A stretch of 61,739 bases of DNA, the filler included. It is 5 parts of 5 records of this genome, joined end to end, with 100 filler letters (N's around TTAATTAATTAA, not from the genome) between each part and the next. Parts side by side here need not be neighbours in the genome. Positions count along the whole stretch, not along the records: positions 7,917 to 28,280 come from SRR31156797_5758; 4 more parts are not named here. One strand, given 5' to 3'. Below the pieces are notes generated by a model that saw nothing but the letters and a program-made list of their open reading frames with translations, searched no databases and had not been told where the DNA came from. Of this stretch, positions 1 through 19,617 are shown piece by piece; the first letter of the stretch is position 1, and the number at the start of each line of letters is the position of its first letter. The translations under genes were made by a program, and so were the position numbers.

Positions 1-1
1 G

Positions 2-2826: not shown

Positions 2827-2830
2827 TTGA

Positions 2831-3949
2831 TTAAAACTGCATTATAAACCTAACACCATCTGTAGAATTTTCTATTTTTAAATTTCCATTGTAACTATTT
2901 TTAATCACTAATTTCACCATATATAATCTTACTCCTGTACCTTCTTCTTTTGTTGTATAGTATGGGTCAAATATTTTTTCTAGATTCTCTTCTTTTATTC
3001 CACCTGCATTATCACTAATGATTAGATAGTTTTTTTCATCTTTAGAAAAAGTTATAATTTCAATCTTTCTATTTTCTATCTCTCTTTCTTCAAAGGCTTG
3101 CATTGAGTTTGTAATTAAGTTGATTAAAACTTGTGATAACTCCATTTCTATACCATTTAATTGATAGTTTGAAAGTAGTTGTGTTTCAAGTTCTACATTA
3201 GCTTTTTTTATTTGTGAGCCAAGTAACTCTTTTGTACTTTCGATAACTTTTTTTATTTCAAATTGATTTTTATGTTTATCTGGGTTAAAAAAGCTAAGAA
3301 AGCCATCAATTGTATCTCTCATATAATGAATTTGTTTTTTAGTATTTTGAGAGAATTCATCAACCATTTCATCATTTAATTCATTAAATTGATATGCAAA
3401 TTTTATATCATCACAATAAATAGAAAGTACATTAAGAGGTTGTTTTAGTTGGTGTGAAATTACACCTATCATTTCACCGATACTGGCCATTTTTGTATTA
3501 TGTACTGCAAGTTTATTTGCTTTTTCAAGGGAAGATTTAATTTGTTTATTTTTATTAAAAAGCTCAATATAGGCTTTAAGTTTTGAAGTTAGAAGAACAT
3601 CATCTATAGGTTTAGAGATATATTCAATAGCTCCTAAATCATAACCTTTTTTTTGATATAAATCTTTATCATAAATACCAGTAATAAAAATAACAGGAAT
3701 ATCTTTTAGTTTTTCTATTCTTTTAATATATTCAACAAATTGAAATCCATCAATATCTGGCATTTGAATATCACAAAGTATTAAATCAACACTCTCTTGC
3801 ATAAGGATATTAATAGCAGCATTTGCATTAAGTGCAGAGTGAATATTGATATCTAAATCTTCAATAAGTAGTTCTAGCGAATATATATTATCTTGAACAT
3901 CATCTATTATTAAAACAGAAAATTTATTTTCCATAATATATCCTTTCAT
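2831..3949 (-). CDS. Hybrid response regulator / histidine kinase (REC-HisKA-HATPase)
   Basis: IIDD..DLILCDIQMPDIDG receiver, H-box ISHQLKQPL, N-box NLITNS, DNAGGI, FDPYYTTK. The G2 box reads GTGVRL. Confidence 0.9.
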   Translation of the reverse strand: MKGYIMENKFSVLIIDDVQDNIYSLELLIEDLDINIHSALNANAAINILMQESVDLILCDIQMPDIDGFQFVEYIKRIEKLKDIPVIFITGIYDKDLYQKKGYDLGAIEYISKPIDDVLLTSKLKAYIELFNKNKQIKSSLEKANKLAVHNTKMASIGEMIGVISHQLKQPLNVLSIYCDDIKFAYQFNELNDEMVDEFSQNTKKQIHYMRDTIDGFLSFFNPDKHKNQFEIKKVIESTKELLGSQIKKANVELETQLLSNYQLNGIEMELSQVLINLITNSMQAFEEREIENRKIEIITFSKDEKNYLIISDNAGGIKEENLEKIFDPYYTTKEEGTGVRLYMVKLVIKNSYNGNLKIENSTDGVRFIMQF

Positions 3950-4017
3950 TTTATATCATCTAAAATTATATTCTAAAATGATACTATAATAGTATTTTTT
4001 ATCTATATAATAACTGT

Positions 4018-5925
4018 ATGGATATTTTAAAGGAGTGGAACATTAAGGTTCTTAAGAAAATGCTAAATATTTTTGATAGATTTAGAAATAGTATTGGCTC
4101 AAATTTATTTAATAGAGTTTATCTTACTTATTTTGTTTTTGTATTTTTATTTGTACTTTTTCAAATCTTTACTGAGTATAAAAATGAAAAACGAAAACTT
4201 GAAAGAGTATTTACAAAAATAGAAACTGTATATAAAAATATTTTAATAAAGAATACAAAAGAAAAAAATATAAAAGAGTTAAATAGTATTTCCCATGCAA
4301 TAGTACAAACTACAGATATCTCAGGTATTTCTATTATTGAAGAGAAACAACGATTTATATATTTAAATGGAATGGTTTCTAGTGATATTGAAAATATTAA
4401 ATCAATAATTAGATTACCAAATTTGAATTATAGATTTTCTAATAGTTTATTAACTCATGGAATGGAATTTACTATTGAAGATAGGAACTACTTTATTTTT
4501 TTATTCATAGATGAAAATAAAATCTATAAAAATATGGAAGAGTCTATCTTCTTAATACTTTTAAATATTTTAGCAAGTATGATTATTCTAGGAATCTTAT
4601 TTCTGATTTTTTCAACAAAATATTTAATCAAACCACTTAACAAAATAATTGATGCAACTAAAAAGTTTGATGTTGTTGGTCATGAAGTAATAGAAATAAA
4701 GTTAGATAAAGTAGAAAAAAATGAGTTACATACTCTAGCTAGAACATTTAATAAAATGTCAAAAAGAATTAATGAAGCCTATATCAATATGCAGCAGCTA
4801 ACAATGATTAGAGAGATTCAAAAAGATAAACTAGAGTTACAAAAAAAAGAACTAGAAGATGCTAATAAATCAAAAGATGATTTTATGGCAAATATGAGCC
4901 ATGAGTTAAAAACACCCCTAAACTCTATAAATGTAATTAGTAATGTAATGATGAAAAATAAAAGAGGAGTTTTGAATGAAAAGGATATTAAAAATTTAGA
5001 AATAATAAATAAGTGTGGTAAAGACTTACTGTTTTTAATAAATGATGTTTTAGATCTTTCTAAACTTGAAGCTGGTGAGATTATATTAAACAATGATAAA
5101 CTTGATTTAAGAGAGTTAAGTGATAGTATCTATGATATGTTTAACTTGCAAGTAAAAGAGAGAAATATAGAGTTTAAATATCATATAGATGATTCTTTAG
5201 ATTTTATTTTTAGTGATAAAGATAGAATTAGTCAAATTATAAAAAACCTTCTAAGTAATGCTGTTAAATTTACTGAAAAAGGTCAGGTTAAATTTTTAGT
5301 TTTTGATGAAGAACCAAATGTTAAAATTGTTGTTGAAGATGATGGAATAGGAATCTCAAAAGATAAGTTAGAGCACATCTTTGATAGGTTTAAACAAGTT
5401 GATGGTAGTACAACTAGAAAATATGGTGGAACAGGATTAGGTTTAGCTATTTGTAAAGAGTTAAGTAAGCTATTAGAAGGTGATGTATTTGTTGAAAGTG
5501 AAGTTGATAAAGGCTCAACATTTACTTTAGTAATTCCAAAAAACAAACATCTTTTAGAGGGAATGAATTTCTTAGAAATAAGTTCAAATAAAGAAGATTT
5601 ACTTGAATTAAATAGAGCAAAAGAAGAGGTTATTGTATTTAATAATGACCCTATAGTCTTTTTCAATCTAGTAATTGAATTAAATAAAAAGTATAAAGTG
5701 ATACAAGCTTTCTCTTTTGATGAGTTGAAAACTTTTATTGAAAGAAAAGAGAAGATTATTATTGATATAGATAATTTACCAAAAGATGAAATAGAGTTTT
5801 TGATAGCAAACTTTGAAGGTAAGTTAATATTTATATCTGAGAATGATTTAGAAGATGAGTATAAAAAGCAAGTATTTGATTTTGTCAAAAAGCCATTAAC
5901 AGAAGAGTTAATTGCAAAGATATAG
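4018..5925 (+). CDS. Membrane sensor histidine kinase (2 TM, HAMP, HisKA, HATPase, degenerate C-terminal receiver-like domain)
   Basis: FMANMSHELKTPLN, NLLSNAVKFT, DDGIGI, YGGTGLGLAI and HAMP (ELHTLARTFNKM). The start may be at a downstream Met. Confidence 0.92.
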   Translation: MDILKEWNIKVLKKMLNIFDRFRNSIGSNLFNRVYLTYFVFVFLFVLFQIFTEYKNEKRKLERVFTKIETVYKNILIKNTKEKNIKELNSISHAIVQTTDISGISIIEEKQRFIYLNGMVSSDIENIKSIIRLPNLNYRFSNSLLTHGMEFTIEDRNYFIFLFIDENKIYKNMEESIFLILLNILASMIILGILFLIFSTKYLIKPLNKIIDATKKFDVVGHEVIEIKLDKVEKNELHTLARTFNKMSKRINEAYINMQQLTMIREIQKDKLELQKKELEDANKSKDDFMANMSHELKTPLNSINVISNVMMKNKRGVLNEKDIKNLEIINKCGKDLLFLINDVLDLSKLEAGEIILNNDKLDLRELSDSIYDMFNLQVKERNIEFKYHIDDSLDFIFSDKDRISQIIKNLLSNAVKFTEKGQVKFLVFDEEPNVKIVVEDDGIGISKDKLEHIFDRFKQVDGSTTRKYGGTGLGLAICKELSKLLEGDVFVESEVDKGSTFTLVIPKNKHLLEGMNFLEISSNKEDLLELNRAKEEVIVFNNDPIVFFNLVIELNKKYKVIQAFSFDELKTFIERKEKIIIDIDNLPKDEIEFLIANFEGKLIFISENDLEDEYKKQVFDFVKKPLTEELIAKI

Positions 5926-5950
5926 CACAATCTTGTAAAAAGGATTTATT

Positions 5951-7228
5951 ATGGTTGAAAAAAATGAAGAGATTAGAAGTTTAAAAGTTTTATATGTAGA
6001 AGATGAAGATTTAGCTAGGGAAAAACTAGGAAAGTTTTTGCAAAGAAAGTTTGATAATGTAGAACTATGTGCAAATGGTTTAGATGGTTTTTTAGCTTTT
6101 GAAAAAGCTTTTCATAGCAATCAAAAGTTTGACTTAGTAATTAGTGATATAAACATGCCTAAGATGGATGGTCTTGAAATGTTTGAAAAGATTAAAGAGG
6201 TTGATACTCATATTCCTTCGATGTTAATTACAGCTAGAACTGAAACTGAGCAATTATTAAAAGCTATCTCTTTACATATAGATAGTTATATTTTAAAGCC
6301 AATAGATTTAACGGTAATAGATGAAAAGTTAAATAGACTTTGTAGTGATATTTTCTATAAAAAGAATTATGAAAATCAAAAGAAAGAGTTACAAACTTAT
6401 TTAGATATCTTAAATCAAGAAGCAATAGTTTCAAAAACTGATTTAAGTGGAAAGATAACTTATGTAAATGATGGTTTTTGTGTTGTTACAGGATATGAAG
6501 AGAGTGAATTAATTGGTAAGTCTCACAAACTAATAAGACACCCAGAGGTTCCTAAAGAGTTTTTTAAAACTCTTTGGGAAACTATACAAGCAGGAAAAAT
6601 CTGGAGTGGTACTTTTAAAAATCTAGCAAAAGATGGTTCAACTTTTTTTGTTAACACAAAGATTATTCCTATTTTTGACTCTTCTAGTAAAGAGATTTTA
6701 GAGTATATTGCTGTAAGATTTTTAGTTACAGAAGATGAACTTAAAAAAAGAGAGAGTTATAAGAAGTATTTAGAACAAGTAGCTCAATATAAAAGAGCTA
6801 TAAGTGGCTTAAATAAAGAGAAAGAAAATTTAGCAAAAAGAGTTATTGACTTAACAAATATAAATGCTACATTGGAGACAAAAGCACAGCAAACAGAAGC
6901 CAAAAGAAAGCAACTTTTAAATCAATTAGAAGCCTATGAAAAAAACAACCTAGAGTATGACAAAGTAAATCTTATGACGAAGCAAGATAAGAGTAAGCAG
7001 TTTGAACAAATGTATAAAGCTTTAAATACTTTAAAGGGTGTAAATAAAAGACAAGAAAAAAGTATAAGAGATTTAGAAGCTATGTTACTTTCAAAAAAAG
7101 ATGAGTTAGATGATTTTATAAAAAAAGATTTAGAGAATAAAAAAAGAATAAATGATTTAAAAGATTTAGTTACAAATTTACAAAAAGAGAATGAAGAGTT
7201 AAAAACTCATAAGAAAACTCTATTTTAA
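5951..7228 (+). CDS. Response regulator with REC-PAS and long C-terminal coiled coil
   Basis: LYVEDE..DLVISDINMPKMDG..KP receiver and PAS (SKTDLSGKITYVN..IRHP..WSGTFKNLAKDG), followed by ~165 aa of K/E/Q/L-rich heptads. Confidence 0.85.
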   Translation: MVEKNEEIRSLKVLYVEDEDLAREKLGKFLQRKFDNVELCANGLDGFLAFEKAFHSNQKFDLVISDINMPKMDGLEMFEKIKEVDTHIPSMLITARTETEQLLKAISLHIDSYILKPIDLTVIDEKLNRLCSDIFYKKNYENQKKELQTYLDILNQEAIVSKTDLSGKITYVNDGFCVVTGYEESELIGKSHKLIRHPEVPKEFFKTLWETIQAGKIWSGTFKNLAKDGSTFFVNTKIIPIFDSSSKEILEYIAVRFLVTEDELKKRESYKKYLEQVAQYKRAISGLNKEKENLAKRVIDLTNINATLETKAQQTEAKRKQLLNQLEAYEKNNLEYDKVNLMTKQDKSKQFEQMYKALNTLKGVNKRQEKSIRDLEAMLLSKKDELDDFIKKDLENKKRINDLKDLVTNLQKENEELKTHKKTLF

Positions 7229-7239
7229 TAAGATAAAAG

Positions 7240-7815
7240 TTACCAAACTTTTATCTCATTATAGATTGAATCTCTTTCAACTGGTGTAAAGCCAGAGTTT
7301 TTGATTAAATCAACAAACTCTTCAAGTGGCATACCATTTGCACTTTTTGCTCCTGCTGCACTTTGAATAGACTCTTTTTCAATTGTTCCATCTAAATCAT
7401 TTGCACCAAACTCTTGAGCTAAAAGAGCTAGTTTTACAGTTGATGTTACCCAATAAGCTTTTATGTGAGGAATATTATCTAAAAGGATTCTAGCAATAGC
7501 CATAGTTTTTAATATCTCTTGACCAGTTAAAAAATCTTTTACTTTTAGATAGTTATTCTCTTTTTGATAAACAAGTGGAATGAAAGCATTAAATCCATTT
7601 GTTTCATCTTGTAAATCTCTAAGTCTTAGCATATGGTCGATTCTGTGTTCTCTTGATTCAACATGTCCAAATAGCATTGTTGCATTACTTTCATGTCCTG
7701 CTTTATGCCAAAGTTTATGAATATCAAGCCATTGTTGTGAAGTAACTTTTCCACCACAAATTCTTTTTCTAACCTTTTCATCAAAGATTTCAGCTCCACC
7801 ACCTGGCATTGAATC
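7240..7815 (-). CDS. mqnE: Aminofutalosine synthase MqnE (radical SAM), C-terminal part; 5' end lost at contig break
   Basis: DSMPGGGAEIF, NATMLFGHVE, LRDLQDET, HIKAYW, FGANDLDGTIEKESIQSAAGA and PVERDSIY motifs of the MqnE/MqnC family (futalosine menaquinone pathway). Confidence 0.82.
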   Translation of the reverse strand, partial: DSMPGGGAEIFDEKVRKRICGGKVTSQQWLDIHKLWHKAGHESNATMLFGHVESREHRIDHMLRLRDLQDETNGFNAFIPLVYQKENNYLKVKDFLTGQEILKTMAIARILLDNIPHIKAYWVTSTVKLALLAQEFGANDLDGTIEKESIQSAAGAKSANGMPLEEFVDLIKNSGFTPVERDSIYNEIKVW

Positions 7816-7816
7816 A

Positions 7817-7916
7817 NNNNNNNNNNNNNNNNNNNNNNNNNNNNNNNNNNNNNNNNNNNNTTAATTAATTAANNNNNNNNNNNNNNNNNNNNNNNNNNNN
7901 NNNNNNNNNNNNNNNN
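7817..7916. other. Artificial contig linker N44-TTAATTAATTAA-N44
   Basis: Seen directly. The 12-mer gives stops in all six frames, and genes on both sides are truncated. Confidence 0.99.
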
Positions 7917-7917
7917 G

Positions 7918-8304
7918 GATTTTACTGCAATCGAAAAAGAAGAAGCCAAAGCTTTAAAAGGTGGTTGGTTAAGAGATCAACAAAGTTGGTTTAATTTACT
8001 AGTTTATCATGGTTGGAGACCTACGCCAGATCAGCCAATCTCGTATTTAGGATCTTATTCAGCAAGTAAAACTTTTTATGCAGGAGTTAAAATTTATGAT
8101 CCTTATTCAGGGGTAGAAGAAATATGTCATATGGGAGATGTGGCTGGTTATATAAGCCCGAGTGCAGCAAGAAATTCGCATATTTTATGGGAAAAAGATT
8201 CTAATAGTAATACTTGGCGTAGTACAGCTTTAGGTGCTGATGCATATGCTGCAGGTGTTGCTGAAGGAACTACATTATATACCACAACAGGTAGTTGGAC
8301 TTAA
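7918..8304 (+). CDS. Double-glycine-leader precursor peptide/protein (5'-truncated; not in the supplied ORF track)
   Basis: Manual translation gives 128 open codons, DFTAIEKEEAKALKGG|WLRDQQSWFNLLVYHGWRPTPDQPISYLGSYSASKTFYAGVKIYDPYSGVEEICHMGDVAGYISPSAARNSHILWEKDSNSNTWRSTALGADAYAAGVAEGTTLYTTTGSWT, with TAA at 8302-8304. The leader matches the F/L-x-x-L/I-x-x-E-E-x-x-x-L-x-G-G pattern, and a C39 transporter lies 1.2 kb downstream. Confidence 0.85.
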   Translation, partial: DFTAIEKEEAKALKGGWLRDQQSWFNLLVYHGWRPTPDQPISYLGSYSASKTFYAGVKIYDPYSGVEEICHMGDVAGYISPSAARNSHILWEKDSNSNTWRSTALGADAYAAGVAEGTTLYTTTGSWT

Positions 8305-8314: not shown

Positions 8315-8337
8315 GTTCGGGGAATTATTCCCCGAAC
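8315..8337 (+). terminator. GC-rich stem-loop after the precursor gene (partial terminator or mRNA stabiliser)
   Basis: Perfect 10-bp stem GTTCGGGGAA-TTA-TTCCCCGAAC, with no real U-tract following. Confidence 0.65.
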
Positions 8338-8372: not shown

Positions 8373-9419
8373 ATGATGGAGAATGCCATTCGCCAAACGG
8401 CAGAAATTTTAAAAGCACAAATATTTAATTATTCAAACACAGGCTTGTTAAGTGGACAAATGGGGGCTAGTTTATTTTTATATTTTGCTTCCAGAATATT
8501 AGATGAAAAAAGATATGAAGATGTTGCCGATACATTAATAGATAATATATACGATAAAATTTCGGATGAGCAACAGCCTTATCATTTTGATGATGGTTTG
8601 TCCGGTATTGCCTGGGGATTTCATTACCTAAATAAAAATGGTTTTTTAGAAGGTGATTTAAACGAAGTACTAGAGGATTTGGATGATAAAATATACCATT
8701 ATATCACATTTAGTGAGAATATGGAAAATGCGGGTGTTCAAACTCTGGTAGGATTTGGATTTTATTTGATTGAAAGAATTAAATACTGCAATGAGTCATT
8801 CAAATCCGATCGTAAACTTTGTTTTGAACGTTTATTAATTTTTATTGTAAATAGGTTGTCTTTTTTATTAGAAAAAGATAAACGTATAATTCAGGAGTTA
8901 CATGGTTTTAGTTTGTTATATGGTTTGCCTTTGTGTATAGTATTTTTAGCTAGTGTTTATAGTCTTAATATATATAATCGAAAAATAGAAAGGACATTTG
9001 AGAATATTTCTTCTTCTGTTACCTCAATAATTCCAAATAGTAGTGCAAACAGGTTTTATTTGGTATTTGCCTTAAAATTTGCTTTACAAAATTATAAGCA
9101 GGATGATTGGAAGAAACACTGTGAACTATTAATAAATACAATTGATATTAATACAATTATTGAAGAGGACTTTTTGAATATTGAAATTCCCTTTTTAAAT
9201 GGTAAAGCAGGATTTGCTTTTTTATTAGATAAATATGCTGAATTATTTGAAGATGATCATCTTTCCTATGACCATGAGTTATTGGTCAATTCAATTATAC
9301 ATTCATCCTTTTGGGATATTAAACCTGATAAATTAAACATTAATACTTTAAATGTAGCAACTGGTATCGCAGGTATCGGTTTGGTATTATTAAAAACGAA
9401 ACAACCAGTTGCGTATTAG
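8373..9419 (+). CDS. Lanthionine synthetase C-like (LanC-like) alpha/alpha-toroid protein lacking canonical Zn-binding motifs
   Basis: Repeated GxxG helix-cap motifs GLLSGQMG, FDDGLSGIAW, FLNGKAG and VATGIAGIG. No WCxG, CHG or GxAHG motif. Confidence 0.72.
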   Translation: MMENAIRQTAEILKAQIFNYSNTGLLSGQMGASLFLYFASRILDEKRYEDVADTLIDNIYDKISDEQQPYHFDDGLSGIAWGFHYLNKNGFLEGDLNEVLEDLDDKIYHYITFSENMENAGVQTLVGFGFYLIERIKYCNESFKSDRKLCFERLLIFIVNRLSFLLEKDKRIIQELHGFSLLYGLPLCIVFLASVYSLNIYNRKIERTFENISSSVTSIIPNSSANRFYLVFALKFALQNYKQDDWKKHCELLINTIDINTIIEEDFLNIEIPFLNGKAGFAFLLDKYAELFEDDHLSYDHELLVNSIIHSSFWDIKPDKLNINTLNVATGIAGIGLVLLKTKQPVAY

Positions 9420-9515: not shown

Positions 9516-11699
9516 GTGTTAAAAGATCGTTTAATTTTCCCTAGTTATATTCAGCACGATCAGATGGATTGTGGCCCTGCATGCTTAAAAATTATTGCCA
9601 AATACTATGGAAAAACCTTATCTATGAAGTATTTGCGTGATAGGTGTTATATCACGCGTGAAGGTGTTTCGTTATTTGATATTGGACAAGCTGCAGAAGT
9701 TGTTGGTTTTAGAACTCTGGCTCTAAAATTAAATTTTGAAGACTTGAGAGATAAAATGCCTTTGCCATTAGTCATCCATTGGAAAGAAAAGCATTTTGTT
9801 GTTGTATACAAGATTACGAGAAATAAGGTTTATGTTTCTGATCCAGCTTCAGGTTTGTTGATTTATACGCATGAGGAGTTTAAAAATGCCTGGTTATATG
9901 ATAATAATATTGGGGCTGCTTTGTTATTAGAAACAACTCCTGAGTTTGATAATATTACAGATAATGAAACAACTGCATCTTTGACATACTTTAGGCGGTA
10001 TCTGAAACCGTATCATAAGTATTTGTTTCAGGTTATTTTAGGGATGTTTGTTGGAATCCTGATTGGAGTTATAAGCCCTTTTATAAATCAATCTGTAGTT
10101 GATTTTGGAATAATGGGAGGTAATATGAGCTTTATTGAAGCTATGATGATAGCCGGTATTGTTCTGGCATTTAGTTCGTTAATCTCAGGGTTTATACAAA
10201 GTCGTTTAATGCTCTATGTTTCTGAAAGAATCAATATGAGTATGGTAAGTGATTTTGTTCGAAAAACACTAAAGTTACCCATTGCCTTTTTTGAACGGAA
10301 GACTGTGAGTGATTTGCTAACACGTATTGGAGATCATGGACGTATACAGTCGTTTGTAATGTCAACTTTTCTTGGCATCTTCATCAATGTACTGCTGTTA
10401 GTTATTTATACCGTGTTAATGTTGTACTATGAACCAACAATGTTTTATATATTTTTTGTTGGTAACTTAGTTTATTTTGGTTGGATACTGTTGTTTCTTA
10501 AAAGAAGAAAAAAGTTAGATAACATACTCTTTGAGTTAAGGACAACTAACCAAAATGCCATGCTTGAGATATATAATAGTGTTCAGGATATTAAGGCAAA
10601 TGGTATTGCAAACAGCAGAAGATGGCGTTGGGAGTTGAGTCGCTTTAAAATATATGGCTTACATGTTAAAAATATGGATCTGGATCAGATTGAGGCAGCA
10701 GGAGCTTCTTTAATCTTGAAGTTACAAGGTGTATTTTTAACATACATAGCCGCATATAATGTTATTGAAGGAAATATGACTTTAGGTATGATGACTGCAG
10801 CTCAATATATACTTGGTCAATTGTCAGGTCCTTTAAGCAGTATGATAGGGTACATCACATCTTATCAATTTGCCCAATTAAGTTTAAAGCGTGTAAATGA
10901 AGTAATTCATGAAGAAAAGCCGGAGGAATCAAAATCTTCGAATGATGTGCCAGAAAATAAGACCATAAAATTAAATGGTGTTAGCTTTCATTATAATCCC
11001 AATTTAGGAGATGTAATTAAAGATATTTCACTCACAATACCTCAAAATAAAGTTACAGCTATAGTAGGAGAAAGTGGAAGTGGCAAAACTACTTTAGTTA
11101 AGCTCTTAATGCGATTCTATGATCCTAATAATGGAGAGATAGAGGTAGGTAATATTGGTGTTGATAGTATAGATTTAGATAAATGGAGAAGGAGTTGTGG
11201 TGTAGTATTGCAAGATGGAAGATTATTTAATGAAACCATTATGTATAATATTACGCTTCAGGATGACGAGAAAGATATAGATACAGAACAACTCAAGAAG
11301 GCCATTATATTGGCTAACCTAACTGATTTTATTAACGAGCGACCACTGAAAGTGTATACGATGTTAGGTGAGAATGGATTAGGATTAAGTCAGGGGCAAA
11401 AGCAAAGAGTATTGATAGCTAGGGCTATATATAAAAACCCTGATTTTATATTTCTTGATGAAGCAACCAATTCCTTAGATGCCAATAATGAAAAAATAAT
11501 TTCAGAGAATCTAAATCAGATTATGGAAAATAAAACAGCTGTTGTTATTGCACACCGATTGTCTACAGTAAAAAATGCGGATAATATAGTTGTTATGGAA
11601 AAAGGTACAATTGCAGAACAAGGGACTCACGAGGAATTAATATCCAGAAAGGGAATGTATTACAAACTAGTGTTTAATCAACTGAATTTAGGAAATTAG
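9516..11699 (+). CDS. Peptidase C39-containing ABC transporter (PCAT, SunT/LanT-like)
   Basis: QHDQMDCGPACL (catalytic Cys), HWKEKHFVV (His), VSDPA (Asp), TM domain, Walker A GESGSGKTT, LSQGQKQR, FLDEAT and IAHRLST. GTG start. Confidence 0.96.
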   Translation: MLKDRLIFPSYIQHDQMDCGPACLKIIAKYYGKTLSMKYLRDRCYITREGVSLFDIGQAAEVVGFRTLALKLNFEDLRDKMPLPLVIHWKEKHFVVVYKITRNKVYVSDPASGLLIYTHEEFKNAWLYDNNIGAALLLETTPEFDNITDNETTASLTYFRRYLKPYHKYLFQVILGMFVGILIGVISPFINQSVVDFGIMGGNMSFIEAMMIAGIVLAFSSLISGFIQSRLMLYVSERINMSMVSDFVRKTLKLPIAFFERKTVSDLLTRIGDHGRIQSFVMSTFLGIFINVLLLVIYTVLMLYYEPTMFYIFFVGNLVYFGWILLFLKRRKKLDNILFELRTTNQNAMLEIYNSVQDIKANGIANSRRWRWELSRFKIYGLHVKNMDLDQIEAAGASLILKLQGVFLTYIAAYNVIEGNMTLGMMTAAQYILGQLSGPLSSMIGYITSYQFAQLSLKRVNEVIHEEKPEESKSSNDVPENKTIKLNGVSFHYNPNLGDVIKDISLTIPQNKVTAIVGESGSGKTTLVKLLMRFYDPNNGEIEVGNIGVDSIDLDKWRRSCGVVLQDGRLFNETIMYNITLQDDEKDIDTEQLKKAIILANLTDFINERPLKVYTMLGENGLGLSQGQKQRVLIARAIYKNPDFIFLDEATNSLDANNEKIISENLNQIMENKTAVVIAHRLSTVKNADNIVVMEKGTIAEQGTHEELISRKGMYYKLVFNQLNLGN

Positions 11700-11710: not shown

Positions 11711-13042
11711 ATGTTTGATGTTAGATTAAGAAGATCGTACGAAGAAACTATATATAATTATCGTCCGCCTTGGATTCATAGGTGGGGTAATACGTATGTA
11801 TTCATTTTTTTATTAATTGTGGTTGGTGGAAGTCATTTTGTAAGATATCCTGATGTAATTGCTGGGGAAGTAGAAATAACAACTATAAATCCTCCAGTCC
11901 ATCTAAAGGCTAAAGTATCAGGTAAAATACAAAAGTTATTGGTAAAAAATAATTCACAGGTAGTTACTAATACTCCGCTTGTGTTACTTGAGTCTTCTGT
12001 GAGCTGGGAGGATTTTTTAGAGGTTAAAAAAAATGCACAGGAATTATTATCGTACACTTTAACGGAAGGGAATAATGAGATTTTTGAACAAATGAATTTC
12101 TCGCGGCATTTGACGCTAGGTTCATTACAAGCAAGCTATGAAGACTTTATTGGAAGTTATTATGAATTGGCAGACTATTATTTTTATCAATTTAATCAAA
12201 AAGAAATTGTAGCTAAAGAGCAGCAGTTGAAAGATTTAAATGAGCTGACTGATATTTTAAATCAGCGTAAGCAAATTGTTGATGATCAATATGAAGTAGG
12301 TTTAAATCAGCTGTCAATGGATTCTCTCGATTATGAAGTGTCTGGCGTGTCGAAGTATTCATATTACGAGAAAAAATATAATTTACTGAATTCAAAAAGT
12401 AATGTTCTTGATGTCAATAAACAGGTTGCTACAAGTACCTCAACAATTTCACAACTTAAATTTGAAATACAGAGCCTTAGGGTAAAGGATGAGATTGAGA
12501 AAAAACGTTTGTGGATTAATTTTAAGCAAAAATTACAGATTCTCTATTCTAGAATAAATGAATGGGAAGATGATTATGTTTTATGTTCTCCTATTAAGGG
12601 AGTTGTAAATTATGCCTCTTTCTGGGCCGAGAATCAAAATGTTAATGCTGGTGAGATTGTGGTTTCTGTTTTACCAGATTCGCAAGCAGAAGTTAAAGCT
12701 CGGATTAGGTATCCAATACAGAAGTCAGGAAAAGTAAAAATGGGGCAGAAAGTGCATATTAAACTAGATAACTTTCCTTACAACGAATTTGGTTTACTGA
12801 GAGGTGTAATTGAAAATAAGTCAACCGTACCTAATACAATAGTTTCCGGAATTAGTGGTAATGTGATGATGTATAGTGCAGATGTATTGCTGGATAAGGG
12901 TTTGGTAACAAGTTATAAAGATACATTACCTGTAGTGCAGGAATTATATGGATCAGGAGAGATATTAACAGATGATATTAGTTTATTGATGCGCTTTTTT
13001 AGCCCTCTTAAAGCAGTATTTGAAGAAAAAATTGAAAAATAA
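11711..13042 (+). CDS. HlyD-family membrane fusion (periplasmic adaptor) protein
   Basis: PPWIHRWG plus TM, YPDVI.G, long coiled coil, SPIKGVV, GKVKMGQKVHIKLDNFPYNEFGLLRG. Directly follows the PCAT. Confidence 0.93.
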   Translation: MFDVRLRRSYEETIYNYRPPWIHRWGNTYVFIFLLIVVGGSHFVRYPDVIAGEVEITTINPPVHLKAKVSGKIQKLLVKNNSQVVTNTPLVLLESSVSWEDFLEVKKNAQELLSYTLTEGNNEIFEQMNFSRHLTLGSLQASYEDFIGSYYELADYYFYQFNQKEIVAKEQQLKDLNELTDILNQRKQIVDDQYEVGLNQLSMDSLDYEVSGVSKYSYYEKKYNLLNSKSNVLDVNKQVATSTSTISQLKFEIQSLRVKDEIEKKRLWINFKQKLQILYSRINEWEDDYVLCSPIKGVVNYASFWAENQNVNAGEIVVSVLPDSQAEVKARIRYPIQKSGKVKMGQKVHIKLDNFPYNEFGLLRGVIENKSTVPNTIVSGISGNVMMYSADVLLDKGLVTSYKDTLPVVQELYGSGEILTDDISLLMRFFSPLKAVFEEKIEK

Positions 13043-13048: not shown

Positions 13049-13828
13049 ATGGAAAAGATAGATTTAAAAGATACAACTTTTATAATTCCAGTTAGGCTTG
13101 ACTCAATAAATAGACTTGAAAACCTAATGATGGTTGTGGATTTTTTAATTGAGAAATTTCATACAAATATAATCATATTAGAAGCTTCAACCTTTTGTAA
13201 TGGATTAGTTAAGCGTTTACTCCCTCAGACTGTTAATTATATGTTTTATGAAGATTTAGATCCTATTTTTCATCGAACATTTTATATCAATGAAATGATG
13301 AAGTCATGCCAAACTCCTTTTGTTGCGGTATGGGATTCGGATGTAATTCTTGGATCAAGGCAAATATTGGAATCAATCACTTTATTGAGAGAAAAAAAGT
13401 CTGATTTTGTTTATCCATATAAGGATAAGTTTCTTGATACCAGTAAAACAATTCGTGAATTATATTTTTTAAGCAGGAATTTTGAATTGTTAATAAAGCA
13501 TAGGAACAAAATGAATGAAATGTACCCGCCAAATCCTGTGGGAGGTGCTTTTATTGCCAATTGTGAATCATACATTAATTCAGGTCTTGAAAATACGGAT
13601 TATTATGGGTGGGGTCTCGAAGATGGTGAAAGGTATTATCGTTGGGATAATCTCGATTATAAAGTTATGCGTGTAGAAGGTCCTATGTTTCACTTATCAC
13701 ATGATCGTGGTATAAATAGTAGCATACATTCTTCAGATTCAGCCAAAATTAAAGAAAATGATATCACACGCACCAGGATGATGAATAAGAGTGAAATGGA
13801 AAAAGTTATTACAAATTGGAAAAAGTAA
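13049..13828 (+). CDS. GT-A fold glycosyltransferase (GT2 / galactosyltransferase Glyco_transf_7C-like)
   Basis: TFIIPVR, DxD motif (WDSD), GGAF, GWGLED acceptor/base motif and FHLSH. Confidence 0.85.
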   Translation: MEKIDLKDTTFIIPVRLDSINRLENLMMVVDFLIEKFHTNIIILEASTFCNGLVKRLLPQTVNYMFYEDLDPIFHRTFYINEMMKSCQTPFVAVWDSDVILGSRQILESITLLREKKSDFVYPYKDKFLDTSKTIRELYFLSRNFELLIKHRNKMNEMYPPNPVGGAFIANCESYINSGLENTDYYGWGLEDGERYYRWDNLDYKVMRVEGPMFHLSHDRGINSSIHSSDSAKIKENDITRTRMMNKSEMEKVITNWKK

Positions 13829-13848
13829 AGCCAAGAGATATTTGTTTT

Positions 13849-15342
13849 ATGCGTTTAGTGAGGAATTTAGGAAAATTTTTGTTGCTGCTAATAATGTTTG
13901 TTGGAGTACAGATTAAATTGTATTCGCAAGAATTAAAAAGTGAATATACTTTAGAAGAATTTATAAAATTAGCTGAAAAATTGTCTTTAGTAAGTATTGA
14001 AGCCAGGAATGAATATATTAGCAGTTGCTACACATATCAGGATTTCAAAACAGGTTATCTGCCATCAGTTTCGTTAAGTACAACAATTCCTAATTTCAAT
14101 CGGTCTATATCTTGGAATGATGATTTGCAGAGTTTTATAGAAAAAAATAATGTTTCCAGTACAGCTAATCTAAGTATGAGTCAAAAGGTGGCTCCAATGG
14201 GTGGAACACTGACAATGTCAAGTAATTTGCAACAAATCGTTTTGTTAGGAGATGATGGGAGTACCACTTACTTTTCTTCGCCATTAAGTTTGTCATATAG
14301 CCAGCCGATATTTGCTATAAATAGCATGAAATGGGAACGAAAAGTTTCTCCAATAGAGTTTGAGAAAGCAAAAAGAACTTATGTTTCATCTATTGAAGAT
14401 AACTCAGTAACTGCAATAAGGCGTTTCTTCTCATTTATCTCCAAGCAAAATACCTTGGATATGGCAAGGTTTAATTATAGTAATCTCGACACCTTATACC
14501 AGATGACGAAAGAGAGGTGTACTTATGGAGCTGTGTCAGAGATAGACTTATTGAAAATGCAAGAGTTGCTTTTAAATGCGAAGGAAAGGCTTATTAATGC
14601 AGAATTAAATTTTAAAAGTGAAAACAATTCAATGATGGATTTTCTTGGACTAAGTTCACATTTTTCATTTAAACTTATGGTTCCTGACAGGCCTAATGCT
14701 CCAGATGTAAATTTCGATGATGTATTAGAGAAAGCAATTCAATATAATCCAGGTTCATTAAGTCGCGAGTTAAATATTCTGAAAGCAAAAAAGGAATTAA
14801 TACAAGCCAAAAAAGAGAGATTTTCTATGGATCTAAGCATTACATATGGTTTAGACCATTCTTCAGCAAGTTCATTAGCTGCTTTATATGAACCGCCATA
14901 TTCAGACAGGCAACAGGTTTCGTTGGGGCTTTCTGTTCCTATAGTTAACTGGGGGCAGCAAAATAGAAAAGTAAAACTAGCTCAGGCAAAAGAAGAACTG
15001 GCTCAGGAAGTTTATGAAAGAGAAGAACGAAAGTTTGTACATGAGGTTGATATGCAGGTACAAAAATATAATGCTCATAAGTCAATCTTAGACTTGACTT
15101 CTTTATTGGATTCAATTGCAATTAAAAAATTTACAATGAGTAAAGAACGTTTTAAGATTGGAAAAATTAGTGTCAGAGAATTAAATGATGCACTAATCGA
15201 AAAAGACAATGCTAATGCTAGATATTTAACAAATCTAAAAAACTATTGGATTTATTTTTTTTCAATGAGACAGTTGACGCTATATGATTTTAATAAAGAC
15301 AGACCATTGTTAGAAGTTTATGAAGAGTATCTAAAGCCTTAA
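13849..15342 (+). CDS. TolC-family outer membrane efflux protein
   Basis: Signal peptide from ATG 13849 (the track's 13816 start is a TTG), YLPSVSL, LSYSQPIF, LSVPIVNWG, ERFKIGKIS and LTLYDF, typical of Bacteroidota TolC. Confidence 0.88.
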   Translation: MRLVRNLGKFLLLLIMFVGVQIKLYSQELKSEYTLEEFIKLAEKLSLVSIEARNEYISSCYTYQDFKTGYLPSVSLSTTIPNFNRSISWNDDLQSFIEKNNVSSTANLSMSQKVAPMGGTLTMSSNLQQIVLLGDDGSTTYFSSPLSLSYSQPIFAINSMKWERKVSPIEFEKAKRTYVSSIEDNSVTAIRRFFSFISKQNTLDMARFNYSNLDTLYQMTKERCTYGAVSEIDLLKMQELLLNAKERLINAELNFKSENNSMMDFLGLSSHFSFKLMVPDRPNAPDVNFDDVLEKAIQYNPGSLSRELNILKAKKELIQAKKERFSMDLSITYGLDHSSASSLAALYEPPYSDRQQVSLGLSVPIVNWGQQNRKVKLAQAKEELAQEVYEREERKFVHEVDMQVQKYNAHKSILDLTSLLDSIAIKKFTMSKERFKIGKISVRELNDALIEKDNANARYLTNLKNYWIYFFSMRQLTLYDFNKDRPLLEVYEEYLKP

Positions 15343-15353: not shown

Positions 15354-16889
15354 ATGAAATCAGCTTATTTAATACACGCAGATAAAAATCCCAAGCAGCT
15401 TATAAGATTGATAGAAACACTGGATTCAGACCAAAGTGTCTTTATAATTCATGTGAATGGTTTTACCAATTTAAAAGCTTTTAAAAGATGTTCGCAAAAT
15501 TTTCAAAAAGATAACATTCACTTTGTTGAATCCAGAATAGAGTACAAGGATGCAGGATTTCGAAAGGTGGAAGCAATCATGTTTTTAATAAAGTTTCTAT
15601 TTATAAATAATATAGAATTTGATTATGCTCATTTAATTAGTTCGGTAGATGTTCCTCTTGTAAATTCAAAGGAAATTCAAGAGTTTTTGTTAAATAATAA
15701 TGAGCAAAATTTCTTAGCCTGGCAAGAAGTAAAAGAGGGCGACCTGACAAGTGCAGGATTTGATAGAGTAAAGTATAAGTGGAACCTAAATAATCAGGAT
15801 AATTGTCGATATTCAGATTTAGAATATAAAAAATCTAATCAATTTTGGAATGAGGATTGTGTAATGCCAATATATACAGGTAGTATGTATTGGAGTCTTA
15901 ATTACAATTGCCTTAAGTTTCTATACAAAGAGTGTAATGAGAAGAATAAAATATATCGTTTTTTTAGATATGCATATAAGCCTGAAGAGATGCTCTTTCA
16001 TACAATGATTATGAATTCATCTTTTAGAGATAGTGTTGTAAATAATTCTCTTAGGGTTGAAAAAAAGAATAATAAAAAGGTTATATCTAAGGGTTTTTCT
16101 ATTGGAGACAAGCCTATGTTGTGGGCTAGCTCTATTGATCATATTCAGGATAATCATAATGGAAGAGTAAATACGGACTTATTTAAAGAACGAGTATCAT
16201 TAAAATCATCAAAAAATTGTGTGATTTCGCCTGTAGGAAAACAAAGTTTGCATAAAAATTGGATTGGTGAAGATGCAGATTATGATCTACATTTAATCGT
16301 TTACGATGATTCATTTGAAAATTATAAAGCAGATTCAAAATACGTTATAGAAGATAGGGGGTTTAAGTTTAAGCTTTTATACAGGTATTTGATAAAGAAT
16401 CAATGGATTTTAAAGAAATACGATTATTTCTATTTTCCAGATGATGATATTGATATTGATTTGAACAATGTGAATAAATTGTTTAAATATATGAAGGAAT
16501 ATAGTTTAGATATAGCACAACCAGCTGTTGCAAATTCCTATATTATTTTTCCAATAACTACCAGGGCATTGGACACCGTGTTACGATATACCAACTTTAT
16601 TGAAGTTATGCAACCATGTTTTTCGCTAGAAGCTTTAAAAAAAATATTGTTCACGTTTAACGCCAATAACAGTGGTTGGGGAATTGATTATCATTGGGGA
16701 AATCTGGTGGATTTTAGAAATTATAATATGGCTGTTATTGACGATGTGTACTCTGTTCATACAAGGCCTGTTTCGTCTAATCATGTTCAGGATCTAAAGG
16801 ATTATATAAAGCTGTATGACTTAAGTCTGGAAGTGTTTCAATTATCAAAAATTACAAAGGATAACCTAGCTTATGAAAACTTCAACTAA
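15354..16889 (+). CDS. Two-domain glycosyltransferase: GT14 (Core-2/I-branching)-like N-domain fused to DUF707-like GT-A domain
   Basis: N-part: AYLIHADKNPKQL, FIIHVN, LISSVDVPL, GSMYWSL, PEEMLFHT. C-part: YDYFYFPDDDI, DIAQPA, TNFIEVMQPCFS, GWGIDYHW. Confidence 0.75.
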   Translation: MKSAYLIHADKNPKQLIRLIETLDSDQSVFIIHVNGFTNLKAFKRCSQNFQKDNIHFVESRIEYKDAGFRKVEAIMFLIKFLFINNIEFDYAHLISSVDVPLVNSKEIQEFLLNNNEQNFLAWQEVKEGDLTSAGFDRVKYKWNLNNQDNCRYSDLEYKKSNQFWNEDCVMPIYTGSMYWSLNYNCLKFLYKECNEKNKIYRFFRYAYKPEEMLFHTMIMNSSFRDSVVNNSLRVEKKNNKKVISKGFSIGDKPMLWASSIDHIQDNHNGRVNTDLFKERVSLKSSKNCVISPVGKQSLHKNWIGEDADYDLHLIVYDDSFENYKADSKYVIEDRGFKFKLLYRYLIKNQWILKKYDYFYFPDDDIDIDLNNVNKLFKYMKEYSLDIAQPAVANSYIIFPITTRALDTVLRYTNFIEVMQPCFSLEALKKILFTFNANNSGWGIDYHWGNLVDFRNYNMAVIDDVYSVHTRPVSSNHVQDLKDYIKLYDLSLEVFQLSKITKDNLAYENFN

Positions 16890-18018
16890 AGAATATGATT
16901 ATTTAATAGTGGGTGCCGGTTTATTTGGGGCAGTGTTTGCTTATTTGCAATCTCAAAAAGGCAAGAAATGTCTGGTAATAGACAAACGAGATCATATCGG
17001 AGGAAATATATATTGTGAAGAAATAGAGGGAATAAATATGCATAAATATGGCCCTCATATTTTTCATACGGATAAAAAATACATTTGGGATTTTGTTAAT
17101 TCATTAGTAGAGTTTAATCATTTTAGATATACACCTTTAGCATACTATAAGGGTAAATACTATAATTTGCCTTTTAATATGCATACTTTCTACCAAATGT
17201 GGGGAACCGCAACTCCAATGGAGGCCAAGCAAATCATCAATGAGCAAGTAGAAAAATTTGGGTGTGAAGTACCTGGTAATTTAGAAGAACAGGCCTTAAG
17301 TTTAGTAGGAAAAGACCTGTATCAAAAACTGATAAAAGGTTATACCGAAAAACAATGGGGGATGGATGCTACGCAGGTTCCTGCTTTTATTATTAAACGT
17401 ATTCCCCTAAGATTTATTTACGACAATAATTATTTTAATGATCCATATCAGGGAATACCAATAGGAGGATACAATAAATTAATAAATAAGTTGTTGGATG
17501 GTATTGATGTTAGATTAAACGTTGAGTTCTTGGGAAATAAATCATATTTTGAATCTATTGCAGATAAGATTCTATATACAGGTTGTATAGATGAATTTTA
17601 CGGATTTACATATGGCCAATTAGATTACAGGAGCTTAAGGTTTGAAACAACATTGCACGAGTGTTCAAACTACCAGGGTAATGCGGCAGTAAATTATACA
17701 GATAGAGAAATACCTTATACTAGGATAATAGAACATAAGCATTTTGGGTTTGGGAATCAGGAAAATACAGTAATAACGAAAGAGTTTTCTACTGATTTTA
17801 CAAAAAAAGATAATGAACCCTTTTATCCAATTAATGATCATAAGAATAATGAAGTCTATAATAAATATAGGGCTCTTTCTGAACAGCAATCAAAATATAT
17901 TTTCGGAGGAAGATTAGGGAGTTATAAATACTTTGATATGGATGATACAATAGAGGCAGCTATGCAATTAGATATGGAATTGGAAAAAAATTTAACTAAG
18001 GAGATATGCAATCTATAG
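16873..18018 (+). CDS. glf: UDP-galactopyranose mutase
   Basis: YDYLIVGAGLFG, HIGGNIY, HKYGPHIFHT, GYTEKQWG, YFNDPYQGIP, TRIIEHKHF, EPFYPIND, GRLGSYKYFDMD. Confidence 0.97.
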   Translation: MKTSTKEYDYLIVGAGLFGAVFAYLQSQKGKKCLVIDKRDHIGGNIYCEEIEGINMHKYGPHIFHTDKKYIWDFVNSLVEFNHFRYTPLAYYKGKYYNLPFNMHTFYQMWGTATPMEAKQIINEQVEKFGCEVPGNLEEQALSLVGKDLYQKLIKGYTEKQWGMDATQVPAFIIKRIPLRFIYDNNYFNDPYQGIPIGGYNKLINKLLDGIDVRLNVEFLGNKSYFESIADKILYTGCIDEFYGFTYGQLDYRSLRFETTLHECSNYQGNAAVNYTDREIPYTRIIEHKHFGFGNQENTVITKEFSTDFTKKDNEPFYPINDHKNNEVYNKYRALSEQQSKYIFGGRLGSYKYFDMDDTIEAAMQLDMELEKNLTKEICNL

Positions 18019-18845
18019 TAACAGGAAAAGTAGAAAATAATAAAATGTTTCTGTTGACACCGAATCAGGGAGGGATCGAGTCTCGATGCGATAGCGTCAT
18101 GGCATTATTTACAGAGGCATTTAATAAAATTAAAGGAAGCTTTAATTTTAAAGATACTATGTTTTTTATCAACACCTGGGATGCATCTTTTAATATAAAT
18201 AATCAATTAACATTTGGTTTTACTCAAGGGGAGAATGTTGTTACATGTCCAGATTTTACTTTTGATAAATGGGTAGAAACCGGAATTGAGAATTTTGAAT
18301 CAGTTGTAGATAATATAATAAAGAGAGGAAAAGAGCCTTACTCCGTAAATAAATTATTTTGGATAGGTACTTTATCTACTCAGCAATTGAGATACAAATT
18401 GCATGATTTAGGGCAATTATATAAAGATGATTTTGAGATTATATCCATGGAATGGATAAAGGAACATGCTAAAGGCCATAAGCATAAGCAAACACAATAT
18501 GTTAGTTTACCTGATCATTGTAATTATAAGTATTTAATTGATTGTGGTGCAGGAGGCTGGAGTGCGCGACTAAAGTTTTTGTTGTTCACAAACAGACCTT
18601 TGTTTTTAGTAGAAAGAGATATCAATAAGCAAGATTATTTTTATCATCAACTTAAACCATATGTGCACTATATTCCACTTTGGCAAGATCTAAGTAACCT
18701 TAGGTCACAATATGAATGGGCTGAAAATAATTATGATAAAGCATGTGAGATAGCAAAAAATGCACAAAAGTTTGCCGTTGAAAATTTAAATAAAGAAGAA
18801 GCATTAATGTATTTGGCAAACCAAATGCTACTACAATTTACTTAA
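18006..18845 (+). CDS. Glycosyltransferase family 90 (CAP10/Rumi-like) protein
   Basis: CPDFTF..W, KLFWIG, YKYLIDCGAGGWSARLKFLL, YHQLKPYVHYIPL..DLSNL and EIAKNAQKFA form the CAP10/Glyco_transf_90 signature. Confidence 0.82.
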   Translation: MQSIVTGKVENNKMFLLTPNQGGIESRCDSVMALFTEAFNKIKGSFNFKDTMFFINTWDASFNINNQLTFGFTQGENVVTCPDFTFDKWVETGIENFESVVDNIIKRGKEPYSVNKLFWIGTLSTQQLRYKLHDLGQLYKDDFEIISMEWIKEHAKGHKHKQTQYVSLPDHCNYKYLIDCGAGGWSARLKFLLFTNRPLFLVERDINKQDYFYHQLKPYVHYIPLWQDLSNLRSQYEWAENNYDKACEIAKNAQKFAVENLNKEEALMYLANQMLLQFT

Positions 18846-18855: not shown

Positions 18856-19617
18856 ATGCAGGAAGTAAAACAAAAACAGGCTTTTTTATTATTAAGCAAT
18901 AATCCTTCAGATAAAATTATTTCGCTCTACAAAGATATTCAAGAGGCAACAAAGGGTATGGGCGATGCTTATTTTTTATTTCATTCTAACTTAGGTATTA
19001 TTCCAGATAAGATAAGTAAGCTAAACTATTTTTCGTTTTCAAATAAAGATTTATTTGATCTAAAGTACATTCCTTTAGAACCCAAGTTTATGCCAATTAG
19101 CTCCCATTTTCCTTTATTCTATTTTTACTTAAACCATAGAAATTATAGCCAATATTGGCTCATTGAAGATGATGTAAGGTTTAATGGAGATTGGTTCGAT
19201 TTCTTTAGTTCTTTTATTAATGATCAATCAGATTTTATTTCAAGTCATATAAAACATTTTTCAGAAAATAAACAATGGGATTGGTGGAATTCATTACGAC
19301 ATAGTAAAATAAATATTCCTCATGAAAGTAGAATTAGGTCTTTTAATCCAGTATGCAGGTGTTCAAATAAAGCGCTTCATTTACTTCATAATGAACTTCG
19401 AAATGGATGGATCGGACATCATGAAGTGCTGCTACCCACTTTGCTGAAGCAAAAAGGATTAAAGTTATTAGATATTAGTGGAGAAGGTGATTATAAAAAT
19501 ACAGATGTAAATATCAAGTTTTGTTCGGATGAAACCATGAGGTTCAGGCCTGCTTTTAAACAGGTCGGAGATGAACAAAATGTATTGTATCACCCTATTA
19601 AAGAATCTCTGGTTTGA
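18856..19617 (+). CDS. DUF3405-like putative glycosyltransferase
   Basis: YSQYWLIEDDVRFNGDW, WDWW, RSFNPVCRCS, GHHEVLLPTL and LYHPIK. The ExD motif suggests a GT-A-like fold. Confidence 0.55.
   Translation: MQEVKQKQAFLLLSNNPSDKIISLYKDIQEATKGMGDAYFLFHSNLGIIPDKISKLNYFSFSNKDLFDLKYIPLEPKFMPISSHFPLFYFYLNHRNYSQYWLIEDDVRFNGDWFDFFSSFINDQSDFISSHIKHFSENKQWDWWNSLRHSKINIPHESRIRSFNPVCRCSNKALHLLHNELRNGWIGHHEVLLPTLLKQKGLKLLDISGEGDYKNTDVNIKFCSDETMRFRPAFKQVGDEQNVLYHPIKESLV

Follow-up and report, generated by a model that had tools for sequence, protein, structure and literature searches.

Genes at the locus

The window, by which we mean the whole stretch of DNA analysed (61,739 nt), consists of five contigs joined by spacers. 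An open frame of 128 residues and a stop occupies 7918-8304 (+), at the very start of the contig at 7917-28280, and its first residues read DFTAIEKEEAKALKGG-W. It is the 3' part of a gene for a 141-aa double-glycine precursor, with a 29-aa leader and a 112-aa core. The ORF listing of the window shows at this site solely an internal 57-aa ORF from 8131. The start codon had been predicted to lie past the contig edge, as indeed it does: the orthologue in a related genome is 140 aa long and supplies just 13 more N-terminal residues. Statements at the genome level rest on this genome (G001; uncultured Saccharicrinis sp. MAG, OY781921.1), a single contig that is 99% complete and about 98% identical to the window across the remainder of the contig. 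The features of the locus are:

7817..7916, no strand: contig-joining spacer, N44-TTAATTAATTAA-N44
7917..7965, +: 3' 16 codons of the 29-aa TIGR04149-type double-glycine leader; the 13 N-terminal codons are past the contig edge
7966..8304, +: core, 112 aa, Cys-poor, 12.4 kDa, pI 5.4; slot 3 of a three-gene array, allele divergent from that of G001
8315..8337, +: 10-bp hairpin past the stop (z -3.5); no U-tract on the + strand
8373..9419, +: stand-alone LanC-like protein, 348 aa, without WCxG, CHG and GxAHG motifs
9516..11699, +: PCAT with C39 peptidase, ABC membrane and ATPase domains; Q13, C19, H93 and D109 present
11711..13042, +: HlyD-family membrane fusion protein
13049..13828, +: GT7C-type glycosyltransferase (PF02709 21.8 bits, cut-off 23); WDxD and YGWGxED conserved
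13816..15342, +: TolC-family outer-membrane channel; start codon uncertain
15354..16889, +: two-domain glycosyltransferase, Branch (core-2/I-branching) plus DUF707
16873..18018, +: UDP-galactopyranose mutase (glf; UDP-Galf supply), sole PF03275 match in G001
18006..18845, +: GT90 glycosyltransferase; nearest solved structures POGLUT1, POGLUT2 and Rumi
18856..19617, +: DUF3405-like protein (23.2 bits, cut-off 25), probably the last gene of the cassette

The GC content of the window's contigs ranges from 26.5 to 52.8% (26.5% for 1-7816; 32, 36, 53 and 50% for the others, which besides 7917-28280 are 28381-41822, 41923-56225 and 56326-61739). The window therefore holds DNA of more than one organism, and genes on either side of a spacer are not neighbours. 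The contig to the left of the spacer (26.5% GC) carries a CofH/MqnC-type radical SAM gene (7240-7809), which was rejected as a partner of the precursor gene because it sits on a different contig. A 531-aa protein without a Pfam match is encoded at 1231-2826 on the same contig.

The frame at 7918-8304 is confirmed as a real gene truncated by an assembly break. Taken by itself, the window copy could be mistaken for the C-terminus of a longer unrelated protein or for a chance ORF at a contig edge, since it has neither a start codon nor a family match of its own. This reading, to which we attach a negligible probability, is already refuted by the full-length orthologue and paralogues (140-141 aa) on the single-contig genome and by the run depth data: in the source run a 44-bp repeat in the leader has twice the depth and accounts for the contig break. 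The purifying selection on the gene also speaks against it. The two points on which the original prediction had staked itself were both checked: the gene is not the C-terminus of a long unrelated protein, the orthologue being 140 aa, and the Gly-Gly is invariant in seven of seven homologues.

The proposal of a GG-leader precursor with an unusually long core is upheld by the full-length orthologue, which scores 28 bits against TIGR04149 (cut-off 25). The 16-residue remnant alone matches no NCBIfam model. The other two paralogues in G001 score 23.7 and 21.3 bits and the distant homologues 19.7-22.7 bits; the three paralogues are the only TIGR04149 matches in that genome. Between paralogues the dN/dS of the leader is 0.01-0.03, which denotes strong purifying selection and, together with the score above cut-off, argues that the GG leader is not a chance motif. 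Cleavage before W7966, as originally proposed, is highly probable in view of the family and of the adjoining PCAT.

LanC cyclases carry the motifs WCxG, CHG and GxAHG. The LanC-like protein of the cassette lacks all three, has no conserved Cys or His column and no fused dehydratase domain; judged by its sequence it is not a cyclase, and it may instead serve as an adaptor for the glycosyltransferases. The GT7C-type gene, whose product weakly matches beta-4-galactosyltransferase 7 (E 0.04), is a marker of this locus type. The nearest solved relatives of the GT90 protein are protein O-glucosyltransferases (E 4e-14), and among 133 genomes of the taxonomic family only G001 has a GT90 gene. GT90 also includes glycosyltransferases of non-protein substrates, and these likenesses of the GT90 and GT7C proteins do not establish a protein substrate. 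A hairpin, as at 8315..8337, also lies 3' of each of the three G001 paralogues; the element may stabilise the mRNA or act as an attenuator. Promoter-like sites are at the chance level (13 seen against 14.2 expected).

Several genes that accompany peptides of this sort were looked for. Downstream of each of the three G001 copies, genes resembling an immunity gene or encoding a cognate lipoprotein are absent. The spaces between and after the copies contain no complete ORF of more than 40 aa; an ORF of 84 aa in a different frame overlaps copy 1. LanB (PF04738) has no match in G001 (control genome G245 positive). The best TIGR04148 match in G001 reaches E 1.5e-7 and 32 bits against a cut-off of 300 (342 bits in the control genome G087). 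No TIGR04157 protein is encoded in the locus; the best in G001 scores 112 bits against a cut-off of 400, and none of five genomes had one over the cut-off. Nor did we find a TIGR04150 pseudo-rSAM protein among the locus genes, a TIGR04195 (SunS-type) match among the cluster glycosyltransferases, or a VKOR-thioredoxin oxidase gene in the locus.

A three-copy array with an exchanged core

In G001 the precursor genes form a tandem array of three (141, 141 and 140 aa), each with a 29-aa leader and a core of 111-112 aa, directly upstream of the same LanC-like gene as in the window. The window gene corresponds to the third. Neither the array nor the allele exchange described below was part of the original prediction. 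The run that may be the window's source holds two more contigs, of 653 and 981 bases, with paralogous leaders, and a 44-base record on the leader at twice the depth. The window's strain therefore also has the array, and the assembly broke inside the leader because the leader is repeated. Compared by eye, the 30-letter loose ends of the two contigs read as G001 copies 1 and 2; from 30 letters of each, slots 1 and 2 look unchanged in the window's strain.

Slot 3 is different. The window core is 68% identical to the G001 slot-3 core (dS 0.76, dN 0.25, dN/dS 0.33), whereas 12 neighbouring genes show a dS of 0.013-0.113 against G001 (13 were compared; MscS was excluded, its alignment being out of register). 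Identity between the window and G001 falls just after the Gly-Gly and returns to near identity just past the stop. The high dS of the core combined with a dN/dS of 0.33 points to the import by recombination of an old allele under purifying selection rather than to rapid point mutation; as dN/dS is below 1, the swap gives no sign of positive selection. In run X2 the leader is followed by 296 other letters in place of 299 and then by the tail, but this is not a third strain because its variants match the G001 allele; hence only two slot-3 alleles are known. Run X3 covered 151 bases only. An alignment of the four close cores shows no invariant column at positions 41-50 and 2 of 11 at positions 11-20.

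Two further genes show clustered differences from G001. In the LanC-like gene (window 8985-9083) five of the six amino-acid differences fall in residues 205-224, which could be a second recombination tract or could reflect co-variation with the swapped core. In the HlyD gene (11711-13042) all seven lie within 24 residues (118-141), a pattern that resembles a short recombined tract. Upstream of the G001 array (L004 about 7330-7530, minus) a short remnant of a gene resembles the C-terminus of an M3-family peptidase; it comes after a DUF6266 gene and an rRNA operon and may mark the insertion edge of the island.

The core family and its predicted structure

A profile of the four copies searched against 1.84 billion representatives gave four matches. 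One is the G001 orthologue; the other three are proteins of 130-138 aa, encoded on contigs about 1 kb long. A seven-sequence profile found no further member among 711 candidates. The family is thus tiny, with seven sequences in all. It occurs in one of 133 genomes of the taxonomic family and in one of 401 of the order, both times in G001. Two metagenome scans showed no member; no longer or fused form of the core scored, which is weak evidence. Beyond the leader, W8, G16, Y38, G40, G57, S71, W84, G109 and S110 (window core numbering) are invariant, the C-terminal columns of the weakest member being uncertain because it matched profile positions 1-93 only.

Recounting the 112-aa core from 7966 gave the composition reported earlier (13 Ser, 10 Thr, 6 Trp, 9 Tyr and 1 Cys). 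In composition the cores are acidic and rich in aromatic residues (14-19 W/Y/F), Ser and Thr; they have a mature size of 11.9-12.4 kDa and 0-1 Cys, two of the four close ones having none. The window core has no hydrophobic segment of membrane length (19 residues), and a soluble folded domain is likely. Its C-terminal aromatic tail, which we take to resemble outer-membrane beta-signals, was considered in that role and found unsupported.

The Thr-rich tail had been put forward as an O-glycosylation patch. In favour, TTTGSWT is invariant in the four close copies, to which the Thr run is restricted; only the Gly-Ser is kept in the three distant homologues, and the proposal is weakened to that extent. 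The Bacteroidetes O-glycosylation motif is D-S/T-A/I/L/V/M/T, and one of the seven family cores contains it.

Pfam, NCBIfam, PHROGs and PDB-sequence searches with the core returned nothing meaningful (in Pfam, a DUF5710 match below cut-off spans the leader-core boundary). The best ESM Atlas scores, 0.79-0.80, are in the chance range, a match to QH-AmDH gamma included. In AlphaFold one of five models of the G001 orthologue is confident (pTM 0.64, pLDDT about 74-85 over residues 31-120), with the order helix, three-strand meander, short helix, hairpin and last strand; the other four have a mean pLDDT of 33-48. The window core alone gives a pLDDT of 46 with much the same order of secondary structure, so that one of ten models overall is confident. 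The suggestion of a folded secreted mini-protein, here an alpha/beta domain, is thus partly supported: the orthologue's confident model favours it and the low score of the window core does not. Searches with the orthologue's model, of moderate confidence, gave a best E of 0.79 in the PDB (Foldseek), a best E of 0.24 in BFVD and a best Z of 4.6 in VIA (rmsd 3.5, 87 aligned). Absence of a fold match does not amount to a new fold. Because the core has no family or fold match, the functions named at the outset, toxin, adhesin or lectin-like protein, cannot be told apart by homology.

Related loci in other genomes

Thirteen loci elsewhere were compared, four from a LanC-like search (133 genomes), one from a leader search (401) and eight from a GT7C search (381). 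Their precursors were chosen by pattern and by eye, and some may have been missed; on this footing the cores measure 30-70 aa and contain 3-8 Cys in nine loci, measure 91-225 aa and contain 0-3 Cys in three, and in one no precursor was found. Two of the short-core loci are true lanthipeptide clusters. A VKOR-thioredoxin gene is present in five of the nine short-core loci and in none of the four long-core loci, the window type included (one of these contigs, that of G009, is just 4.6 kb). In several short-core loci each precursor is paired with a DUF5128/DUF4934 beta-propeller protein. None of the long cores (G009, G073, G152) aligns with the window core. All three of these loci, and several of the short-core ones, have a partner gene downstream of the precursor, whereas the window-type locus has none; the long-core partners are an unknown 180-aa protein, an aspartyl protease and a BspA repeat protein.

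In a tree of 13 PCAT sequences all four long-core transporters lie on the same side of one branch (support 100/99; one of 500 shuffles as low), which we treat as a lead only, the branch being short, placed between two long ones and unrooted, and the sample small and non-random. A LanC-like gene directly precedes a glycosyltransferase gene three times in G087, and also in G046, G073, G152, G244, G245, G267, G302 and G401; in the window-type locus it precedes the PCAT gene instead.

Some of these loci deserve mention in their own right. G152 (L030 12748-14772) encodes a 255-aa GG precursor whose 225-aa core contains HEYAH, an HExxH-like motif, followed by a BspA leucine-rich-repeat protein, in a locus with Branch, GT2, HlyD, PCAT, TolC, LanC-like and GT4 genes; this cargo is a candidate PCAT-exported metalloprotease with a partner. 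The same genome has three tandem paralogues of 151-155 aa after a peptide cluster (L066 3580-5031), the first of which matches DUF4488. In G073 (L024 17781-18152, 16349-17740) a GG precursor of 123 aa, its core free of Cys and rich in Gly, Asn and Thr, precedes an aspartyl-protease gene, a second similar copy of which lies further along; its PCAT is 70% identical to that of the window. In G009 (L022 652-1122, 89-631) a 156-aa GG precursor with a 126-aa core is followed by the 180-aa protein, which has no family and a signal-peptide-like start. The GG-Bacteroidales radical-SAM cluster of G087 (L020-L021) is complete and flanked by insertion sequences; it includes three LanC-like genes, each directly before a different glycosyltransferase gene. 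A sulfotransferase and an APS kinase are encoded within the GG-peptide/glycosyltransferase cluster of G046 (L023 10078-11331), suggesting a sulfated glycan or peptide. A true LanM in G302 (L041 17360-19624) and a true LanB in G245 (L047 4008-7086) lie beside a degenerate LanC-like/GT7C pair, and glycosylated lanthipeptides are thus possible in Bacteroidales.

A proposed mechanism and its alternatives

Very probably, the adjoining PCAT would bind the 29-aa leader, cut after the Gly-Gly and pass the 12-kDa core out through PCAT-HlyD-TolC in one step. This is well supported because G001 has one C39 peptidase (PF03412), the PCAT of the cassette, and all its TIGR04149 matches lie in the array; in PCAT, specificity is described as set by the leader only (PMC6959990). 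Outside the cell the core would then, rather likely, form a small, disulfide-free alpha/beta domain whose frame is conserved and whose variable patches are mainly residues 41-50 (the predicted hairpin tip) and 11-30; the one confident model in ten tells against this step. Before export, and here we see the chances as evenly balanced, the catalytically degenerate LanC-like protein would deliver the precursor to the co-encoded glycosyltransferases, which might put a short glycan, possibly with galactofuranose, on Ser or Thr. For such a step we point to the sole glf gene of G001 lying in the cassette, to the LanC-like genes that precede glycosyltransferase genes elsewhere and to the relatives of the GT90 protein. 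Against it, the LanC-like gene here precedes the PCAT gene, and proteins of this kind have been read as glucanase-like (PMC10352776). The GT7C and LanC-like genes also adjoin unrelated Cys-rich cores and true LanB or LanM clusters, so that their products may not act on the core.

The released product, probably a weapon or a recognition molecule, would with nearly even odds be an oversized class II microcin-like diffusible antagonist of related bacteria, and strains would alter its specificity by exchanging the core, with the conserved leader and 3' tail on either side left in place. We favour antagonism on three grounds: the export plan is like that of microcins, the allele has been exchanged, and similar leaders carry unrelated cargoes. 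The other long-leader loci, with unrelated cargoes, one of them HEYAH-bearing, resemble polymorphic systems in this respect. A microcin-like secreted antagonist, possibly glycosylated, is our best reading of the locus, with a probability of about 0.4. The missing immunity gene, the acidic core and a dN/dS below 1 weigh against it, as do the absence here of a partner gene that is present in three of three other long-core loci and a core that exceeds the 5-10 kDa given for class II microcins (PMC12219008). The lack of an immunity gene is not fatal, as bacteroidetocins are described without one (PMC6671954).

The closest contender retains the export route and has the cargo leave unmodified, the glycosyltransferases, glf and the LanC-like protein building or trimming a separate surface glycan and merely travelling with the exporter. 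Branch, DUF707, glf and GT90 are the usual enzymes of polysaccharide synthesis, two of the three relatives of the DUF3405-like protein sit outside peptide loci, and the lack of the Thr run in the distant homologues and the glucanase-like reading of the LanC-like proteins (PMC10352776) suit this view as well. The cassette has, however, no flippase or polymerase gene; the GT7C gene is lodged between HlyD and TolC with overlapping or near-touching genes, and relatives of GT7C lie near a GG precursor in seven of the eight other genomes examined. We hold it to be a real possibility with the odds somewhat against it, and it is compatible with an antagonist, an adhesin or a signal.

The cargo might also act on a host or a surface, as an adhesin, a lectin or a subunit of a biofilm matrix, with the swap changing binding specificity or antigenicity. 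Such a role would fit the lack of an immunity gene, the acidic, aromatic- and Ser/Thr-rich cores with their predicted beta-meander, the big glycan cassette with its Galf supply, and the hairpin after every copy, which suggests high levels of precursor message; but the core matches no lectin, pilin or adhesin fold or family, has no visible anchor and belongs to a system found in only one of 133 family genomes, and we consider the role unlikely. A strain-specific signal, i.e., a pheromone or kin-recognition ligand whose pherotype is set by the swapped allele, is quite improbable. Polymorphism at a single slot would suit pherotypes, and the beta-propeller protein paired with precursors in the short-core loci is called a putative signalling protein, a hint of a signalling role, where it is discussed in PMC10352776. 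The present locus has neither that partner nor a two-component regulator, and at 12 kDa, in three copies, the protein is large for a signal. Distinctly unlikely as a whole, but the most far-reaching, is the view that a Bacteroidales PCAT branch has given up small peptides with rings or disulfides for polymorphic cargo of protein size: a lengthened GG leader of 29-32 aa would send whole folded domains (91-225 aa, mutually unrelated, one with a metalloprotease-like motif) along a glycosylation line in the cytoplasm, which a dead LanC organises, and then out of the cell by a type I channel, and the core would be a secreted galactofuranose-bearing glycoprotein toxin of new fold, its alleles exchanged like cassettes.

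Significance

The microcin-like antagonist remains our preferred reading, and the precursor family itself is real, rare and uncharacterised; the type of locus that carries it is known but has yet to be solved. Bacteroidales abound in stand-alone LanC-like proteins, for which there is no explanation so far. One survey lists 1,392 unclassified LanC-like proteins, some of them suggested to mark an uncharacterised RiPP class (PMC7268733). The locus offers a stripped-down test case in G001, with one exporter and three cargoes. Because it has no radical SAM protein, LanB or disulfides, a mass shift on the secreted core must stem from the glycosyltransferase and LanC-like set. The size of the cargo matters too. 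The PCAT1 cavity is given as about 15,000 cubic angstrom and a 66-residue cargo as about 9,000 (PMC6959990); scaling these figures gives about 15,300 for a cargo of 112 residues and about 30,700 for that of G152 with its 225 residues, so the transporters may thread rather than enclose their cargo. If glycosylation of protein-sized cargo is indeed leader-recognised, the locus would constitute a portable glycosylate-and-secrete module.

Comparison with known systems

The nearest known system is the GG-Bacteroidales one (TIGR04149 precursor, TIGR04148 radical SAM, TIGR04150 pseudo-rSAM, TIGR04157 glycosyltransferase; BGC3-5 of PMC10352776), with which the locus has in common the leader family, a PCAT-MFP-OMP exporter, a LanC-like protein without zinc ligands or LanB, and co-encoded glycosyltransferases. 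G087, of the same genus, carries that system together with the same LanC-like, GT7C, Branch-DUF707 and glf genes. G001 differs in having no TIGR04148 protein over cut-off, and the window-type locus in having no VKOR-thioredoxin or cognate beta-propeller gene; TIGR04157 scores stay under the cut-off in G001 as in all five genomes searched. The cores here are of 111-112 aa with 0-1 Cys, in contrast to the short Cys-containing cores of that system, as also in nine of the 13 related loci. PMC10352776 describes the LanC-like proteins of its BGC3-5 as lacking cyclase motifs, and such proteins as never found with LanB and as standing outside lanthipeptide clusters. It also remarks on BGC5 precursors with "a predicted long core", the one previous remark on long cores in this group among the sources drawn on. 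A literature search, with subscription journals largely outside its coverage, returned no description of this cargo family.

With class II microcins of the MccV type the locus shares the plan in which PCAT, MFP and TolC carry a small protein with a GG leader out of a Gram-negative cell, and the precursor is below the 150-aa limit of the screen in PMC12219008; the conserved tail and adjoining tailoring cassette recall the class IIb members with their modified C-terminal tail. It departs from the microcins as outlined there (about 5-10 kDa) in its 12-kDa size, its 29-aa leader and the absence of an adjacent membrane immunity gene and of siderophore genes (PMC12219008). Bacteroidetocins, likewise from Bacteroidales, have a GG leader, a PCAT and no immunity gene, but are described with a leader of 15-16 aa, a hydrophobic basic core of about 42 aa with at least 2 Cys, a TM protein and usually a thiol oxidoreductase (PMC6671954). 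Here the leader is 29 aa, the core is 112 aa, acidic, without a hydrophobic helix and with 0-1 Cys, and neither accessory gene is present.

Glycocins have two disulfides, a SunS-type glycosyltransferase and a core typically about one third of 112 aa. The locus shares with the sublancin type a GG leader, a PCAT and a glycosyltransferase in one cluster; unlike it, there is no conserved Cys, disulfide machinery or SunS-type TIGR04195 match, and the core is about three times longer. From lanthipeptides it is set apart by the lack of a dehydratase (no PF04738 in G001), of cyclase zinc ligands and, in two of the four close cores, of any Cys. The original view that the core is neither a glycocin nor a lanthipeptide therefore stands.

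By its sequence features the locus falls outside the radical-SAM system, the lanthipeptides, the glycocins and the bacteroidetocins, and by leader and gene set it belongs to the GG-Bacteroidales group, as a variant of the known, uncharacterised Bacteroidales clusters of GG peptides, LanC-like proteins and glycosyltransferases.
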